IMG/VR virus record: IMGVR_UViG_2681813268_000003
Location: 1-6,870 of that record
Direction: 5' to 3' (one strand)
Source of the DNA: a virus
Taxonomy: Duplodnaviria > Heunggongvirae > Uroviricota > Caudoviricetes
Length of the DNA: 6,870 bases
Shown: piece by piece, positions 2,317 to 6,727 of the stretch
Layout of the letters: each line of letters starts with the position of its first letter
Numbering within the stretch: position 1 is the first letter of the stretch
The notes under the pieces: model-generated
What the model saw: only the letters and a program-made list of their open reading frames with translations
What the model was told of the DNA's origin: nothing
The model's database searches: none
Position numbers and translations under genes: made by a program

Positions 2317-3003
2317 ATGACCCCAATAAACATATTTATGACAGTTGCTGATTTCAAACGGCCCAAATTGGAGCTCCCAAACGGGGCAAACAAACTACTA
2401 CTGCACTCTTGCTGTGCTCCATGTTCCGGTGAGGTGATGGAGGCGCTTCAGGCCTCGGGAATCGACTACACCATCTTTTTCTACAACCCGAACATTCATC
2501 CTCAGAAAGAGTATTTAATTCGTAAGGATGAGAATATTCGCTTTGCTGAACAACACGGCGTGCCGTTTATTGATGCTGATTACGACACAGACAACTGGTT
2601 TGAACGAGCCAAAGGAATGGAATGGGAGCCCGAACGAGGGATCCGTTGCACCATGTGTTTTGACATGCGTTTTGAGCGGACAGCGCTGTACGCCGCTGAA
2701 AATGGTTTCAGTGTGATCAGCAGTTCACTGGGCATTTCACGCTGGAAAAATATGCAGCAGGTTAACGACTGTGGGCGGCGAGCCGTCGCGCATTATCCGG
2801 GCATGGTGTACTGGGATTATAACTGGCGCAAGCAGGGCGGCTCGTCCCGTATGATTGAAATCAGCAAGCGCGAAAAATTCTATCAGCAGGAATATTGTGG
2901 CTGTGTGTATTCTCTGCGCGATACCAATCTACACCGCAAATCTCAGGGACGCCCTCTTATCAAAATTGGTCAACTCCACTACGGTAAAGAAGAGAAGGAG
3001 TGA
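2317..3003 (+). CDS. queH: QueH-like protein (DUF208 family, putative B12-independent epoxyqueuosine reductase)
   Basis: 228-aa ORF with N-proximal [11 protein letters not shown] motif and additional conserved Cys (CTMCFD, EYCGCVY), which I recognise as DUF208/QueH hallmarks. No obvious SD; alternative start ATG 2338. Confidence 0.7.
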
Positions 3004-3057: not shown

Positions 3058-3072
3058 TGCGGGTGCTTGAGG
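3058..3072 (+). promoter_or_regulatory. tac-like 5' element of hok mRNA copy 1 (TGCGGGTGCTTGAGG), complementary to the fbi-like 3' element at 3443..3458
   Basis: 15 bp pair with 3443-3458 (CCTCAACGCACCCGCA) with one bulged C. Same 5'/3' fold-back architecture as described for plasmid R1 hok mRNA. Copy 2 equivalents at 6400-6414 and 6779-6794. Confidence 0.55.
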
Positions 3073-3104
3073 CTATCTGCTTCAGGCATGAACACCAAAA
3101 GGCA

Positions 3105-3182
3105 GATAGAGAAAAGCCCCAGTTAACATTACGCGTCCGGCAAGACGCTTAACATTAATCTGAGGCCAATTTCATGCTTTGC
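3105..3182 (-). ncRNA. Putative Sok-like antisense RNA of hok locus 1 (extent approximate)
   Basis: Inferred by analogy to hok/sok. Minus strand has -35-like TTGCCT (complement of 3212-3217) and weak -10-like TAACCT (complement of 3189-3194) with 17-nt spacing, pointing transcription antisense across the mok start (3174). 3' end not defined. Confidence 0.25.
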
Positions 3183-3386
3183 ACATGTAGGTTAGCCTCT
3201 TACATGCCGAAAGGCAAGGAGAAGCAGGCTATGAAGCAGCAAAAGGCGATGTTAATCGCCCTGATCGTCATCTGTTTAACCGTCATAGTGACGGCACTGG
3301 TAACGAGGAAAGACCTCTGTGAGGTACGAATCCGAACCGGCCAGACGGAGGTCGCTGTCTTCGTAGACTACGAATCCAGGAAGTAA
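3174..3386 (+). CDS. mok: Mok-like regulatory ORF, in frame with and containing hok (70 aa)
   Basis: ATG 3174, same frame as hok. Same in-frame arrangement as I recall for E. coli MokC/HokC. Confidence 0.5.
   Translation: MLCTCRLASYMPKGKEKQAMKQQKAMLIALIVICLTVIVTALVTRKDLCEVRIRTGQTEVAVFVDYESRK
3231..3386 (+). CDS. hok: Hok/Gef-family type I toxin (51 aa, single TM helix)
   Basis: MKQQKAMLIALIVICLTVIVTALVTRKDLCEVRIRTGQTEVAVFVDYESRK is near-identical to recalled HokD/HokC sequences. SD AAGGAG 3215-3220 before ATG 3231. Confidence 0.9.
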   Translation: MKQQKAMLIALIVICLTVIVTALVTRKDLCEVRIRTGQTEVAVFVDYESRK

Positions 3387-3635: not shown

Positions 3636-3923
3636 ATGAAAATCGAAGAATTGCGTGAAATTTTTAGTGAAAATGGCCTCTATGCTGTGCGCGTTGAGAA
3701 TGGAGCGATTGTCAGCCATTGCCGCATTAGATGTTTGCAATCTCAACAAAGGAAGAGCGGTGCTGTGTTATTTTATTTTTGTAATGGACTTCTGACGGAC
3801 GGTTTTATTTTGCGTGAGGACGAATTTGTCACATCATTACGGGTTTTGAAAGAGATTGGTTTTAAGGCTGGTTTTCTGCTTTTGCTGAAGAATAAACTCA
3901 TCTACAATCTTGAGCAGGATTGA
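3636..3923 (+). CDS. Hypothetical protein (95 aa)
   Basis: ORF with SD GGAAGGA 3621-3627, 8 nt before ATG 3636. No recognised motif. Confidence 0.55.
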   Translation: MKIEELREIFSENGLYAVRVENGAIVSHCRIRCLQSQQRKSGAVLFYFCNGLLTDGFILREDEFVTSLRVLKEIGFKAGFLLLLKNKLIYNLEQD

Positions 3924-3961: not shown

Positions 3962-4178
3962 ATGGCACATATACAACTGGTCAAACAAACCTCTTCCGGA
4001 TTACTTCTCCCGGCGACGCCGGAGAGTTGCGATTTTCTGCATCAAATCAAAATAGGTGAGTGGATACACGCAGACTTTAAGCGTGTGTGTAACTACGCAT
4101 TCCACAAGCGTTTTTTCAAACTCCTGCAACTGGGTTTCGATTACTGGACTCCGGTCGGTGGGGCGATCACGCCTCTGT
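3962..4178 (+). CDS. Phage nin-region protein, 3'-truncated at the N gap (possibly DUF1367-like, tentative)
   Basis: ATG 3962 preceded by GGAGA 3951-3955. Translation MAHIQLVKQTSSGLLLPATPESCDFLHQIKIGEWIHADFKRVCNYAFHKRFFKLLQLGFDYWTPVGG... runs into the N run at 4179. Family assignment is from memory only. Confidence 0.5.
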
Positions 4179-4184
4179 NNNNNN
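4179..4184. other. Run of 6 N: assembly/scaffold gap of unknown true length
   Basis: Literal nnnnnn in the sequence; flanks correspond to positions 1940 and 1942 of the upstream repeat copy. Confidence 0.95.
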
Positions 4185-4412
4185 CGGGTTGACGAAAAAG
4201 AGCGTCAGGTCCGCTGTAAAATCTGCGGTGCGGTTGTGGAGCCGTTTGACTGGATGCTCTCTGTGGCAAAAAGAGAAACCAGACTGGCAGATGATGTAAG
4301 GCTATTGCGCCAGGAGGAACAGGAAAGGCGGAGAAATATAGAAAAGCTGATACAGATTGAGCGTAACGCGAAAGCGCGGATACGCAGGGCGACAAAATCC
4401 AGAACTGAATAA
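4185..4412 (+). CDS. 5'-truncated second copy of the zinc-ribbon/coiled-coil protein (3' 228 nt identical to 1942..2169)
   Basis: Frame-3 translation from the gap edge (RVDEKERQVRCKICGAVVEPFDWML...ATKSRTE) is identical to the C-terminus of the 1813..2169 product. Confidence 0.5.
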   Translation, partial: RVDEKERQVRCKICGAVVEPFDWMLSVAKRETRLADDVRLLRQEEQERRRNIEKLIQIERNAKARIRRATKSRTE

Positions 4413-4498
4413 TTAAATTTAGCACTGTTAAAAATTTAATCCTTAACCGGAGGGATTTCTGCACCCTCAAATCATCAGGAGACCGCCCGAAAGGGCGG
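4185..4498 (+). repeat. Copy B of the 314-bp direct repeat (partner 1942..2255)
   Basis: See copy A. Ends in a GAAA-loop hairpin (4482-4499) that is perfect here but mismatched in copy A. Confidence 0.95.
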
Positions 4499-4504
4499 TA
4501 ATGA

Positions 4505-4723
4505 ATGGTTACATTATTTAGAAAAAAATATCCGCGAAAGAGTAGAACAACAGAATTCCTGTTTCTCATTCTGTTTATCGTGTTGATGACACCGATATCC
4601 CCGCTAATTTTTGTCTGGATAATCGGAAAAATAATTGAGCCAGTTATTGAATTGTATAACGACGTGGTATGGGCGTCATTCAACACACTGCACAATAAAA
4701 TTAATCCGTATAAGGAAAGCTGA
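4505..4723 (+). CDS. Small hydrophobic (membrane) protein, 72 aa, AT-rich
   Basis: ORF with hydrophobic core FLFLILFIVLMTPISPLIFVWIIGKII. Stop 4721-4723 is 1 nt before the HNH start 4725. Markedly AT-rich compared with its neighbours. Weak SD. Confidence 0.4.
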   Translation: MVTLFRKKYPRKSRTTEFLFLILFIVLMTPISPLIFVWIIGKIIEPVIELYNDVVWASFNTLHNKINPYKES

Positions 4724-4724
4724 T

Positions 4725-5090
4725 ATGGCACTGACGAAAAAACAACGTGCAGAACTGCGCATGAAGTTCGGTGGTCGCTGCGCTTATTGCGGCTGCGAAC
4801 TTGGCGAAAAGTGGCATGCAGACCATGTAAAACCGGTCATTCGTTTTGATGGAAATATGCTTCACCAGGAACGTGACGATATATCCAACATGGTACCAGC
4901 ATGCCACCCATGCAATCTGCACAAGCATTGCAGTAGCCTGGAAGATTATCGACGAATTATCAGTGATGGTCGTCGTGAATTCCTTGCGTCCGGGAAAGGC
5001 AAAGCGCTGGTTCGTATGGGATTGGTTGAAATGAAATCTGACCCGGTTGTGTTCTGGTTTGAAAAATATCAAGAAGGGGCTACGGCATGA
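4725..5090 (+). CDS. HNH endonuclease-domain protein (121 aa)
   Basis: SD TAAGGAAAG before ATG 4725. HNH signature CAYCGCEL...WHADHVKPV...NMVPACHPCNLHKH. The tool ORF from 4635 has no RBS support. Confidence 0.85.
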   Translation: MALTKKQRAELRMKFGGRCAYCGCELGEKWHADHVKPVIRFDGNMLHQERDDISNMVPACHPCNLHKHCSSLEDYRRIISDGRREFLASGKGKALVRMGLVEMKSDPVVFWFEKYQEGATA

Positions 5091-5752
5091 CCACTATTAC
5101 CAAAGAGCGACTGCAATGGCTGGCTAACATTTCTGGCCGCGATGATATTGACGATATAGACGGCGGTGAAATTCGTGAACTGGCGCTTATCGCTCTGGCA
5201 TCACTGGAAGCAGAGCCTGTAGCGGAATGCATTGTTGAAGATGGGGGCATGTGTATTGACGGGTTCGGTGAGTATGTGGGTCACTCGCTGCCTGATGGAA
5301 TGCATGAGCTTTATGCTGCCCCGCGAATGCGACAACCTGATGGATGGAAAGCCGTAGCTGTAGCGTGGAAGGTGACGTTTACTCAAGTTGACCAGGAATC
5401 TAATACGTTCACTGCTATATATTTTGACAAAGCGGAAGTTGAGTGTTGGGTACGACTGCATAAAGCATGTGATTTTCGGGCAGATATAACACCGCTTTAC
5501 GCAGCGCCGGCAGTGCCGGTTGCAGTAAACGACGACATGGCTTACGCATTCCATCACGCACTGTCAGATTCATCGCTTGGCTCTGATGAAATCGAAGAAA
5601 TTAAAACCGGTTTGCGTGCTGCCTTTGCCAACGTCACTATCCAACCAGAGCCGATAGTGCCGGATGAAATCGGGCCAAACGATAGTAATACGTTTGATTA
5701 TGTTGATGGCTGGAACGCCTGCCGCGCTGCCATGCTTAAGGGAGATAAATAA
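5087..5752 (+). CDS. Hypothetical protein (221 aa), acidic N-terminus, two LYAAP-containing segments
   Basis: ATG 5087 overlaps HNH stop (ATGA 5087-5090). Coding-like composition. No recognised family. Confidence 0.7.
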   Translation: MTTITKERLQWLANISGRDDIDDIDGGEIRELALIALASLEAEPVAECIVEDGGMCIDGFGEYVGHSLPDGMHELYAAPRMRQPDGWKAVAVAWKVTFTQVDQESNTFTAIYFDKAEVECWVRLHKACDFRADITPLYAAPAVPVAVNDDMAYAFHHALSDSSLGSDEIEEIKTGLRAAFANVTIQPEPIVPDEIGPNDSNTFDYVDGWNACRAAMLKGDK

Positions 5753-6117
5753 TGATTAATCGAACCAAACTGGAGCACATTCTCGAATATGCCAGGCAGC
5801 AGAAATGTATTGGGCAACTTTGTAAAATTCCACCAGGAGATATGGTTGAAATCGTGGAAATGGCCATGCGTAAGGCTGGCAACTCTCCGGTAGCTCCGGC
5901 TGGCTGGATAAGCTGTAGTGATGCAGTTCCTGCTGAATATTGCGATGTGATTCTTCTCGATGATCTCGGGAATGTATTCCCCGGTTCCTGGGATAAGGTT
6001 TTTTGCCCCACTCGTGGCGGGAATAAGATGGCTTTTGTGGACAAAGACGGCGTTGAAGTAGAGAGCTCAACTCACTGGATGCCGCTACCGGAACCACCGC
6101 AGGAGGTGAATCAATGA
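5752..6117 (+). CDS. DUF551-like phage protein (121 aa)
   Basis: ATG 5752 overlaps previous stop (TAATG). C-terminal ...THWMPLPEPPQE and WISCSDAVPAEY... resemble the DUF551 pattern found in lambdoid nin regions (from memory). Confidence 0.7.
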   Translation: MINRTKLEHILEYARQQKCIGQLCKIPPGDMVEIVEMAMRKAGNSPVAPAGWISCSDAVPAEYCDVILLDDLGNVFPGSWDKVFCPTRGGNKMAFVDKDGVEVESSTHWMPLPEPPQEVNQ

Positions 6118-6197
6118 CCTGGCCTGAGGCATTCACCACGGTAGGAATTGCGATGGCGGTGGCGCTGGTGGTGTATTCGATTTGCCGTTGGGGTTAA
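6114..6197 (+). CDS. Putative 27-aa hydrophobic micropeptide (MTWPEAFTTVGIAMAVALVVYSICRWG)
   Basis: Below the ORF-track length cutoff. ATG 6114 overlaps DUF551 stop (ATGA), strong SD AGGAGG 6101-6106 at 7-nt spacing, stops 7 nt before a strong terminator. Confidence 0.4.
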   Translation: MTWPEAFTTVGIAMAVALVVYSICRWG

Positions 6198-6207
6198 CAA
6201 ACAAAAA

Positions 6208-6233
6208 CCCCGGATTGATGGTCCGGGGTTTTT
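6208..6233 (+). terminator. Rho-independent terminator closing the HNH-containing operon
   Basis: CCCCGGA 6208-6214 pairs TCCGGGG 6222-6228, 7-nt loop, then T5 6229-6233. Confidence 0.75.
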
Positions 6234-6445
6234 GAAGGAAACAAAACAGAAACAGCAATTGCCGTTACCTGTTGTTACCATGGCAAGTAAACGTATCTCA
6301 GGCGAGCGCATTGCGCCGTTCTGACGCAGATAAACTAGCCTGGATAGATGGTGCTGGCAATAAAAAATAGCGTTTTCTTATCGGTGTCGGTAAGATTGCT
6401 GCGGGTGCTTGAGGCTGTCTGCCTCGGGTATGTCACTGTAAGGCA

Positions 6446-6523
6446 GACAGAGAAAAGCCCCAGTTAACATTACGCGTCCTGCAAGACGCTTAACATTAAT
6501 CTGAGGCCCAATCTATGTCTCAC
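6446..6523 (-). ncRNA. Putative Sok-like antisense RNA of hok locus 2 (extent approximate)
   Basis: By analogy only; the same minus-strand hexamers as locus 1 are conserved (complement of AGGCAA and AGGTTA). Confidence 0.2.
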
Positions 6524-6727
6524 AAATGTAGGTTAGCCTCTTACGTGCCGAAAGGCAAGGAGAAGCAGGCTATGAAGCAGCAAAAGGCGATGTTAATCGC
6601 CCTGATCGTCATCTGTTTAACCGTCATTGTGACGGCACTGGTAACGAGGAAAGACCTCTGCGAGGTACGAATCCGAATCGGCCAGACGGAGGTCGCTGTT
6701 TTCGTAGACTACGAATCTAGAGAGTAA
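6515..6727 (+). CDS. mok: Mok-like regulatory ORF, in frame with and containing hok copy 2 (70 aa)
   Basis: ATG 6515, same architecture as locus 1. N-terminus differs (MSHKCRLASYV vs MLCTCRLASYM). Confidence 0.5.
   Translation: MSHKCRLASYVPKGKEKQAMKQQKAMLIALIVICLTVIVTALVTRKDLCEVRIRIGQTEVAVFVDYESRE
6572..6727 (+). CDS. hok: Hok/Gef-family type I toxin, second paralog (51 aa)
   Basis: MKQQKAMLIALIVICLTVIVTALVTRKDLCEVRIRIGQTEVAVFVDYESRE. Differs from copy 1 at T35I and the C-terminal residue. SD AAGGAG before ATG 6572. Confidence 0.9.
   Translation: MKQQKAMLIALIVICLTVIVTALVTRKDLCEVRIRIGQTEVAVFVDYESRE

Follow-up and report, generated by a model that had tools for sequence, protein, structure and literature searches.

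The exo-xis regions of lambda and Stx phages and the ea region of P22 are early-transcribed, non-essential and made up of tightly packed small genes with strong mosaicism, features that are shared by the block of five open reading frames (ORFs) analysed here. Ea22 genes are mosaic, DUF551 is a portable domain of the P22 EaA type that is also found in Ea22 variant 2, and some early phage accessory genes influence the choice between lysis and lysogeny in Stx phages (PMC10834534). In 933W, a DUF4014 gene (L0067) located near int in the leftward early operon is followed by an unrelated 95-aa gene and a DUF551/EaA-like gene (L0065), and the leftward early operon near int of ArgO145 carries Ead_Ea22, DUF4014, HNH and a 114-aa gene. 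Adjacent and overlapping HNH and DUF4014 genes are also present in early accessory regions of the lambdoid/P22-like phages HK225 (056/057) and g341c (24/23). The lambda nin region is, like the block, a non-essential string between replication genes and Q with terminators interspersed. Among characterised nucleases, ORF2 of the block resembles Gme HNH (4h9d), N.phiGamma and HK97 gp74, which share a length of ~100-130 aa, the motif CxxC...DH...N...CxxCN and a beta-beta-alpha-metal fold (PMC3592412), and its HNH motif region aligns with that of the PtuB-type effectors of Septu and retron systems.

The block departs from each of these systems. Compared with lambda exo-xis, it is located in a rightward operon downstream of replication genes and ea22, orf60a, orf61 and orf63, the lambda genes with known phenotypes, are all absent; compared with the nin region, it contains no lambda nin gene and its ORF2 is not NinG. 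In HK225 and g341c the HNH gene comes first, and identity to the block is 50-62% for HNH and 47-51% for DUF4014. The similarity of ORF2 to Gme HNH, N.phiGamma and HK97 gp74 is weak (E 0.058; fold E no better than 0.03) and has no cos or terminase neighbour to accompany it, while only ~70 of the 210-300 positions of the PtuB profiles are matched by ORF2 and no PtuA ATPase or other partner is present in the block. The block is likely to be one allele of a hypervariable accessory segment of a Rac-like lambdoid prophage, its combination of genes having arisen by chance, and not a dedicated five-gene machine.

Organisation of the block and its slot

The window, that is the whole stretch of 6,870 nucleotides analysed, was examined by ORF listing and direct reading of the sequence, and five + strand ORFs followed by a closing hairpin were located exactly where the original prediction had placed them. 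ORF1 (4505-4723) encodes a DUF4014 family protein of 72 aa with a predicted membrane location, ORF2 (4725-5090) a zinc HNH (His-Me finger) nuclease of 121 aa, ORF3 (5087-5752) a mosaic protein of 221 aa, ORF4 (5752-6117) a DUF551 protein of 121 aa and ORF5 (6114-6197) the hydrophobic 27-aa peptide MTWPEAFTTVGIAMAVALVVYSICRWG. The start of ORF2 was set at the ATG at 4725, as in the PGAP annotation, a longer TTG alternative being present at 4635. A gap of 1 nt separates ORF1 and ORF2 (TGA-t-ATG), ORF2 and ORF3 as well as ORF4 and ORF5 are joined by ATGA, and ORF3 and ORF4 by TAATG; a Shine-Dalgarno-like motif is found ahead of each of ORFs 2 to 5. The family matches of ORFs 1, 2 and 4, the database relatives of ORF3, the codon changes in ORF5 and these Shine-Dalgarno-like motifs together identify the five ORFs as genuine genes and not chance ORFs. 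The string is probably one tightly packed co-directional unit that is co-transcribed and translationally coupled, in keeping with the co-translated unit proposed earlier.

A sigma-70-like promoter was not found on the + strand upstream of ORF1, no Rfam element is located inside the block (the sole matches in the window being two flanking sok elements) and no tRNA genes were found. The string would lack a promoter of its own and would be expressed by read-through from the early rightward promoter in lytic growth or induction, its ORFs being coupled in translation, the usual arrangement in early operons of phages. In Shigella, IS elements have replaced the upstream promoter region, and expression of the block there is therefore uncertain. 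The 5' boundary of the cargo slot is formed by a GC hairpin, ACCGCCC-GAAA-GGGCGGT (4482..4499, + strand; dG -19.3 kcal/mol, z -4.2), which overlaps the weak Shine-Dalgarno motif of ORF1 and at the 3' end of which, on direct comparison, the similarity of two module copies in the window stops. The slot, in a Rac-like lambdoid prophage, has the replication genes on one side and hok/nin/Q on the other, and its context is cI/cro-like, YdaT, YdaU, DnaC-like, DUF977, Zn-ribbon, block, hok, DUF1367, YbcO, DUF1133, tRNAs and lysis genes. The insertion site adjoins dbpA-ttcA and is the Rac site of K-12. QueH occupies the same slot in the second copy within the window and many other genes are found there in related loci, which bears out the suggestion that the position is one for accessory cargo.

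Matches to Rfam sok (RF01794, gathering score 59) were detected at 3061-3236 and 6403-6577, one at 118 bits and the other at 117 bits, and in both flanking cassettes the sok match is accompanied by a hok ORF, as is characteristic of hok/sok type I toxin-antitoxin loci. The downstream cassette (6403..6727, + strand; hok at 6572-6727, sok at 118 bits) is a neighbour outside the string, and in the matching genome PGAP assigns the product of its hok to the Hok/Gef family. The two hok cassettes said to flank the block are thus both present in the window, but the left one belongs to another copy of this module string, joined on at a run of Ns. A direct repeat (1942-2241 and 4185-4484) is 100% identical, and within it the 3' part of a zinc-ribbon gene (4185..4412, + strand; phrog_1621), the native upstream neighbour of the block, exactly repeats 1942-2169. 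Immediately before it, at 4166..4184, a truncated DUF1367 gene meets the zinc-ribbon gene through a 10-nt microhomology, ATCACGCCTC, after which come TGT and six Ns; the native DUF1367 gene runs on as ...ATCACGCCTCGCGAACG in 27 loci. This junction was absent from complete E. coli genomes, eight Shigella-type complete-genome contexts, IMG/VR contigs and all fetched loci, and probably represents either a join made in assembly or scaffolding or a rearrangement specific to the strain. Uninterrupted genomes have DnaC-like, DUF977, Zn-ribbon gene and block in this order, followed by a single hok.

The DUF4014 protein and the HNH nuclease

ORF1 matches DUF4014 over its full length (PF13198, E 1.3e-25, positions 1-71 of 72) as well as phrog_1832 (E 1.5e-44). 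It is predicted to be a small inner-membrane protein. Its N-terminus is basic, a single long hydrophobic segment spans ~residues 17-41 and the C-terminal tail, HNKxNPY, is conserved; the alignment contains 30 invariant columns common to ORF1 and the DUF4014 copies of 933W, ArgO145, g341c and HK225. A full-text literature search on 'DUF4014' returned no papers. The label 'O-polysaccharide/sugar acetyltransferase inhibitor' carried by DUF4014 was traced to similarity to epsilon15 gp46 in an annotation note and was not used because no supporting experiment was found in the literature search; the PHROG label 'released from the phage upon host infection' was likewise set aside.

ORF2 was assigned to the HNH / His-Me finger nucleases by profile as well as by catalytic and zinc residues. 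It scores 28.2 bits against PF01844 (cut-off 21.4, E 2.2e-6) and matches phrog_2118 (E 8.8e-57), and in an alignment of 52 sequences the residues C19, C22, D33, H34, N55, C60, C63, N64 and K67 never vary, C19/C22/C60/C63 being the Cys4 zinc site. The AF2 model (pLDDT 90.5) has a beta-beta-alpha fold, and the top matches of a PDB fold search were all HNH domains (Cap5, Cas9, Gme HNH, endonuclease VII and McrA; E 0.03 or weaker). The small membrane protein, HNH nuclease and DUF551-like protein recognised in the original prediction are matched by PF13198, PF01844 and PF04448. Assignment of ORF2 to NinG/Rap (PF05766) was rejected at 18.2 bits against a cut-off of 25.4, with the HNH motif alone covered, as was NCBIfam retron-HNH at 21.8 bits against a cut-off of 52. 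PADLOC returned partial matches to PtuB and PDC-M01B that span the HNH motif only (best E 3.2e-8, residues 6-79). The protein would be a small zinc-stabilised, metal-dependent enzyme that nicks or cuts DNA.

It is extremely unlikely that ORF2 is a packaging nuclease that aids terminase in the manner of HK97 gp74, which would make the block a housekeeping one. The similar size and [CxxC]2 HNH motif, a best PDB sequence match to the prophage Gme HNH nickase 4h9d (weak, E 0.058) and the frequent occurrence of this class beside cos and terminase (PMC3592412) are outweighed by position: the gene, like every relative that was inspected, is located in an early region close to replication, nin, int or ea genes, and no homologue examined adjoins a terminase gene. 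The neighbours of HNH homologues include NinG, NinB, DnaB, IstB, Q, integrase, DUF551 and Ead_Ea22, with NinB, NinG, NinE and RusA as nin-gene neighbours in other phages; 108 neighbouring ORFs matched 50 families, the 25 commonest of which include no terminase or portal family, and in the matching prophage the terminase gene lies ~8.6 kb downstream of the block, past the lysis genes.

The HNH gene might instead be a free-standing selfish gene of the homing-endonuclease type, spread by cutting and repair and helping to create the mosaicism around it. Sporadic and apparently mobile HNH genes are known in lambdoid early operons (PMC12315714), and a literature search for HNH genes in exo-xis regions gave nothing specific. 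Relatives with 33-77% identity are scattered sporadically over 153 sequenced phages, among them virulent RB49-type, Vibrio, Acinetobacter and Caulobacter phages, and one is annotated as a homing endonuclease; near-identical HNH genes are found between 15 upstream and 23 downstream gene clusters, and the last ~50 nt of the gene occur without the remainder in ~318 further genomes. This explanation is nevertheless considered improbable, as the protein comprises 121 aa with no extra DNA-binding domain recognisable in Pfam or in the AF2 model, the flanks vary, unlike those usually left by homing, which are conserved whether or not the insert is present, and the nuclease-free genes of the region are equally mosaic.

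DUF4014 and HNH are neighbours at a frequency above that of random gene pairs, and their adjacency could mean a functional pair. Survey of 5426 complete E. coli genomes identified DUF4014 in 1012 and HNH in 385, with a contiguous DUF4014-HNH pair in 217, and the two genes adjoin in 60 of 85 HNH-centred and 32 of 80 DUF4014-centred loci. Diverged copies with the opposite arrangement, in which HNH precedes DUF4014 and the two overlap by 4 nt, are found in the leftward operon of Salmonella phage g341c and the nin region of coliphage HK225, and a single S. sonnei record has both fused as one ORF. A two-gene core, in which the membrane protein would control, anchor or sense for the nuclease (for example in superinfection exclusion or abortive infection) and the other ORFs would be passengers, is however regarded as unlikely: DUF4014 mostly occurs without HNH (1012 against 217 genomes) and in 933W is followed by the 95-aa gene instead, no DUF4014 was found within 4 kb of HNH homologues in ~30 other species even when an HMM search was included, and no PADLOC system was matched. 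As both genes belong to one small ea-type pool, their repeated adjacency can be explained by linkage.

The mosaic proteins, the terminal peptide and the closing hairpin

ORF3 is composed of an N-module (residues 1-46/79, starting MTTITKERL and ending LASLEAEP), an inserted small beta-beta-alpha-beta domain (~residues 88-138) and a C-module (residues 134-221, ending GWNACRAAML). The module map shows that the N- and C-modules elsewhere make up the N-terminal halves of proteins of the DUF551, Ead_Ea22 and DUF550 families. The protein has 3289 database relatives, yet no match to Pfam, including the Ead/Ea22 model PF13935, with whose carriers it has merely short modules in common, and its PHROG matches are patchy; judged by its modules, it is related to the Ead/Ea22 module pool and is not a member of the family. 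The AF2 model, built from a 49-sequence alignment, has a mean pLDDT of 52 and is confident only at residues ~90-138, and a BFVD fold search with it gave low TM-scores to uncharacterised proteins that are not interpretable. ORF4 consists of an N-terminal module (residues 1-50, phrog_24004) and a full-length DUF551 domain (residues 51-117 against positions 1-68 of 68 of PF04448, E 3.4e-19; phrog_924). PDB sequence searches with ORF3 and ORF4 gave no match. Full-length copies of ORF3 and of this ORF4 allele are each present in 2 of the 5426 complete E. coli genomes, with fragments in 246 and 765, respectively, and other phages combine the modules of the ORF3 and DUF551 proteins differently or fuse them in one protein.

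ORF5 was found in 1285 of the complete E. coli genomes (about a quarter). Among the features listed under sampled matches no separate CDS was evident, and the gene is annotated in few GenBank records. Comparison of 28 DNA variants identified 26 synonymous and 22 non-synonymous, mostly conservative, codon changes. Across 52 loci it follows 9 different upstream gene clusters, with the ATGA overlap retained in 50, and three different sequences were seen downstream. ORF5 is a conserved, independent mosaic unit that is mostly unannotated. It is always last in the string and, because the gene before it invariably comes from the MTT[I/F]T mosaic family, members may be coupled to some extent.

In this allele the string ends at a GC-rich hairpin with an A-tract on one side and a T-tract on the other (6202..6234, + strand; dG -23.7 kcal/mol, z -4.1), a candidate intrinsic terminator of the bidirectional type, consistent with the strong terminator expected there. 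A pattern scan places it on the - strand because the hairpin is symmetric. It would behave as terminators of the lambda nin region do and let antiterminated transcription through. Other loci have a different hairpin after ORF5 or run directly into the hok leader.

Distribution of the genes and interpretation of the block

The whole block was found in only 2 of the 5426 complete E. coli genomes, compared with 1012, 385 and 1285 for DUF4014, HNH and ORF5 taken singly, and in 16 of 80 IMG/VR loci whose HNH is at least 95% identical; recurrence of the five genes as a unit in other prophages had been proposed as a check. Proteins identical to those of the block are present on at least 1000 contigs, mostly of clonal Shigella (S. 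sonnei and S. flexneri). Neighbours of the HNH gene were compared in 85 chains, one from the window, 5 from loci of annotated records and 79 from IMG/VR loci. Upstream, 15 different gene clusters were found, with the 1-nt gap in 83 of 85, and downstream 23 different clusters, joined by ATGA in 80 of 84. Because the same ATGA and 1-nt junctions are found with any neighbour, tight coupling is a property of mosaic junctions and not of the gene set. The exchange seams are TGA-n-ATG before HNH, ATGA with MTT[I/F]T after HNH and ATGA before ORF5.

A single dedicated system for superinfection exclusion, phage defence or counter-defence, as originally suggested, would account for the tight coupling, the common closing hairpin, the cargo-slot position beside a hok/sok cassette and the persistence of the intact block on so many contigs. 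This explanation is highly improbable, since the intact block is limited to a clonal group, every gene assorts independently, two of the genes are internally mosaic and the junctions are identical whatever the partner. The components do not co-occur across independent lineages, as those of a multi-gene system would; none of the four partner genes was found beside HNH homologues in ~30 other species. Each gene has its own distribution and is scattered independently, contrary to the notion of one functional unit; such scatter had been named beforehand as an outcome that would refute it. PADLOC detected no full-length effector with partner genes, PtuA included, and gave no significant match for the other four proteins, only JetA at E 0.062 for ORF3, and an NCBIfam scan of all five proteins returned generic HNH-motif matches and no system. 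Single genes may have a defence or anti-defence role.

The ends of the string, DUF4014 with HNH at the 5' end and ORF5 at the 3' end, could also be imagined as a membrane-associated nuclease module for phage-phage or phage-host conflict, with the variable Ea22/DUF551-type genes between them as exchangeable specificity or adaptor parts. We regard this as very unlikely; a weaker version would take the DUF4014-HNH pair alone as a new two-gene exclusion system.

[quoted passage not shown] The ORF3 and DUF551 proteins would be host- or development-modulating proteins of the Ea22/EaA type, and the DUF4014 protein and the ORF5 peptide would be small inner-membrane proteins. Judged by distribution alone, the five products would act separately, and their combination would reflect common descent in a clonal lineage, mainly Shigella, and not a functional requirement.

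A probable chance assembly of accessory genes that are shuffled independently of one another, the block is for the most part unremarkable. A common terminator and overlapping start and stop codons are no mark of a functional system in lambdoid prophages; such junctions join many different genes and look like seams of module swapping. Two leads are left, the recurrent adjacency of DUF4014 and HNH and the conserved, mostly unannotated gene for the 27-aa membrane peptide. The locus belongs to the early phage accessory 'dark matter', so that a function established for DUF4014, this HNH or the DUF551 module proteins would hold for thousands of prophages in E. coli and Shigella.

Five coupled ORFs in a Rac-like prophage

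As originally noted, five consecutive + strand ORFs with tight junctions, followed by a hairpin, are present in the window. They comprise ORF1 (4505-4723, 72 aa), matched by DUF4014 (Pfam E 1.3e-25); ORF2 (4725-5090, 121 aa), an HNH protein scoring 28.2 bits against a Pfam cut-off of 21.4; ORF3 (5087-5752, 221 aa), with 3289 database relatives; ORF4 (5752-6117, 121 aa), matched by DUF551 (Pfam E 3.4e-19); and ORF5 (6114-6197), a hydrophobic peptide of 27 aa with a coding-type substitution pattern. From ORF1 to ORF5 the junctions are, in order, a 1-nt gap, ATGA, TAATG and ATGA. The strong hairpin at 6202-6234 (dG -23.7 kcal/mol, z -4.1), flanked by an A-tract and a T-tract, was assigned to the - strand by a pattern scan owing to its symmetry. 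The same boundaries were called by PGAP for the first four genes in a 99.8% identical E. coli locus, where the 27-aa ORF was not called. Given the Pfam matches, the relatives of the 221-aa protein, the substitutions in the 27-aa ORF and the PGAP calls, all five ORFs are real genes.

The locus is a Rac-like lambdoid prophage, in which cI/cro-like regulators, YdaT, a DUF1376/YdaU-type gene, a DnaC-like ATPase, DUF977 and a Zn-ribbon gene precede the slot holding the five-ORF block, and hok, DUF1367, YbcO, a DUF1133 Q-like gene, tRNAs, lysis genes and terminase follow it. A (GAGGAA)n repeat at 165-215, upstream of the DnaC-like gene, encodes a run of ~17 glutamates and falls in a region annotated as a split YdaU-family pseudogene in the matching E. 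coli record. In Shigella-type complete genomes (L202-L209) the block lies in an IS-riddled remnant adjoining dbpA-ttcA, the Rac attachment region of K-12. IS1 and IS3-family elements have broken up this remnant, and an IS1 immediately upstream of the block means that the native early promoter is gone there. As the + strand ahead of ORF1 has no predicted sigma-70-like promoter, the block would be transcribed by read-through from the early rightward promoter.

A composite window and a variable slot

Six Ns occupy positions 4179-4184, and 1942-2241 recurs at 4185-4484 with zero mismatches. The left part of the window (DnaC-like gene, DUF977, Zn-ribbon gene, QueH, hok/sok and the start of DUF1367) matches strain FDAARGOS_943 at 98.8% and represents one prophage type, the right part matches FDAARGOS_944 and VL40 at 99.8% and represents another, and the whole window was found in one place in none of the complete E. 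coli genomes. At the join (4166-4184) a truncated DUF1367 gene is fused midway into the Zn-ribbon gene at a 10-nt microhomology, ATCACGCCTC, which ends three bases ahead of the Ns; neither the retrieved loci, nor IMG/VR, nor the eight Shigella-type complete-genome contexts contain this junction. The window has the look of two related prophages joined in scaffolding or by rearrangement. In uninterrupted genomes the native order is DnaC-like gene, DUF977, Zn-ribbon gene, block and a single hok. Since the junction is absent elsewhere and uninterrupted genomes have one hok, downstream, the placement of the block between two hok cassettes is true of this assembly only and not of the native locus.

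The description of the position as a variable slot is backed by comparison of the two copies of the module string within the window: past a common GC hairpin, QueH is found in the left copy and the five ORFs in the right copy, and downstream of the slot both copies enter the same hok/sok leader. The slot is a genuine cargo position. Homology between the slot alleles stops exactly at the GC hairpin (4482-4499, GAAA loop; related copy at 2241-2255), which also overlaps ORF1's weak ribosome-binding site; the hairpin could mark a recombination boundary or act in RNA processing or translation control. QueH (epoxyqueuosine reductase; 2317-3003; PF02677, E 1.9e-65), also encoded in E. coli FDAARGOS_943, is a gene for tRNA modification that the prophage carries as cargo in the left copy's version of the slot. 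A 95-aa ORF without assignment (3636-3923) separates the left hok cassette from the DUF1367 gene.

Gene distribution and mosaic seams

Genes were counted in 5426 complete E. coli genomes using megablast (at least 80% coverage). DUF4014 was found in 1012 genomes, HNH in 385, the two contiguously in 217, the 27-aa ORF in 1285, the 221-aa gene in 2 (fragments in 246) and the DUF551 allele of the window in 2 (fragments in 765). With the whole block in 2 genomes and the single genes spread separately, the five genes do not co-occur as the unit that had been proposed. No single sequenced phage contained 80% of the block, and the full block was present in 16 of the 80 IMG/VR loci having an HNH of 95-100% identity. 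Identical proteins occur on at least 1000 contigs, chiefly of Shigella sonnei and S. flexneri, a spread that fits inheritance within clonal lineages. In ~30 other species with HNH homologues (36-91% identity), no DUF4014 (also searched by HMM), 221-aa gene or 27-aa ORF was found; DUF551-family genes made up 3 of 108 neighbouring ORFs, and the DUF551 protein of the window gave weak matches in three of these loci.

The coupled ORFs were followed in 85 sequences, namely the window, 5 annotated-record loci and 79 IMG/VR loci. The 5' neighbour of HNH falls into 15 clusters, its stop lying 1 nt ahead of the HNH start in 83/85 cases, and the 3' neighbour into 23 clusters, with an ATGA overlap with the HNH stop in 80/84 and a start of MTT[I/F]T in most clusters. 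The final ~50 nt of the HNH gene (5040-5090) form a conserved junction stub that occurs alone in ~318 further E. coli genomes. Because the same junctions are made with many different neighbours, tight coupling is a property of seams and is uninformative on the functional unity of this gene set. By analogy, the junctions appear to resemble the conserved boundary or 'linker' sequences of lambdoid mosaics, reportedly described by Clark et al. 2001 and Juhala et al. 2000.

DUF4014 adjoins HNH in 217 of the 385 HNH-bearing genomes, 60/85 HNH-centred loci and 32/80 DUF4014-centred loci, which is commoner than we expected for a random pair. The two also adjoin in the opposite order, overlapping by 4 nt, in Salmonella phage g341c (leftward operon; L210:3501-4138) and coliphage HK225 (nin region; L211:3501-4093), whose HNH proteins are just 50-62% identical to that of the block. 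This frequency, and the recurrence in diverged copies, could point to a functional pair; each gene is nevertheless common without the other, and we consider such a pairing improbable. One Shigella sonnei record (P0181, 194 aa) reads DUF4014 and HNH as a single fused ORF, probably through an indel at the 1-nt gap.

The 27-aa ORF is an independent, conserved unit, being preceded in 52 loci by nine upstream gene clusters (ATGA-coupled in 50/52) and followed by three different sequences. Its 28 DNA variants carry 26 synonymous and 22 mostly conservative non-synonymous codon changes, the YSICRWG end is nearly invariant, three copies have a premature stop, and a Shine-Dalgarno-like motif is present in both main upstream-sequence types. 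The ORF is annotated in only a few GenBank records, and no separate CDS was evident in features under the sampled genome matches. A genuine small membrane protein is its probable product.

Protein families and the ea-gene pool

In a 52-sequence alignment, the Cys4 zinc site of HNH (C19, C22, C60, C63) is invariant, as are D33-H34, N55, N64 and K67. The structural model was confident (pLDDT 90.5), and its PDB fold neighbours were HNH nucleases only (Cap5, Cas9 HNH, Gme HNH nickase, T4 endonuclease VII and McrA), at E values of 0.03 or weaker, as expected for a very small domain. The protein is similar to the small [CxxC]2 phage HNH nickases (PMC3592412), but, unlike them, has no adjoining terminase gene. 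The commonest families among 108 ORFs neighbouring distant homologues were NinG, NinB, integrase, DUF551, IstB, DnaB and Q; of the 50 matched families, the 25 listed include neither a terminase nor a portal family. The HNH has relatives in 153 sequenced phages, virulent RB49-type phages included. A lambdoid phage survey describes HNH genes of early operons as sporadic and apparently mobile, and cautions against reading their role from gene position (PMC12315714). Assignment as NinG was rejected, the match being below the NinG threshold. Identity of the block with a known defence system was likewise rejected: PADLOC gave partial motif matches of HNH to PtuB and PDC-M01B and no significant match for the other four proteins, and NCBIfam gave only sub-threshold matches, to IscB and retron-HNH.

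The 221-aa protein has no Pfam match and is mosaic: an N-module (residues 1-46/79) and a C-module (134-221) flank an inserted segment. In most relatives the N- and C-modules are contiguous, and there they make up the N-terminal half of DUF551 proteins of 245-290 aa or are joined to Ead_Ea22 or DUF550 domains. AlphaFold2 was confident for the inserted segment only (~residues 88-138), a beta-beta-alpha-beta unit. ORF4 consists of a separate N-terminal module (phrog_24004) and a DUF551 domain of the type found in P22 EaA; DUF551 is portable and present in Ea22 variant 2 of Stx phages (PMC10834534). As the same families stand in the leftward early operons of 933W (DUF4014 (L0067), a 95-aa gene, then a DUF551/EaA-like gene (L0065)) and ArgO145 (Ead_Ea22, DUF4014, HNH and a 114-aa gene), the block is an ea/exo-xis-type cassette sited in the rightward operon. 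Judged by family membership only, its products most likely include a small zinc DNA nickase or nuclease (HNH), Ea22/EaA-type modulators and two small membrane proteins. The original suggestion of a dedicated five-gene module for superinfection exclusion, anti-phage activity or counter-defence is not borne out; the block is one rare draw from the ordinary mosaic pool of lambdoid prophage early accessory genes.
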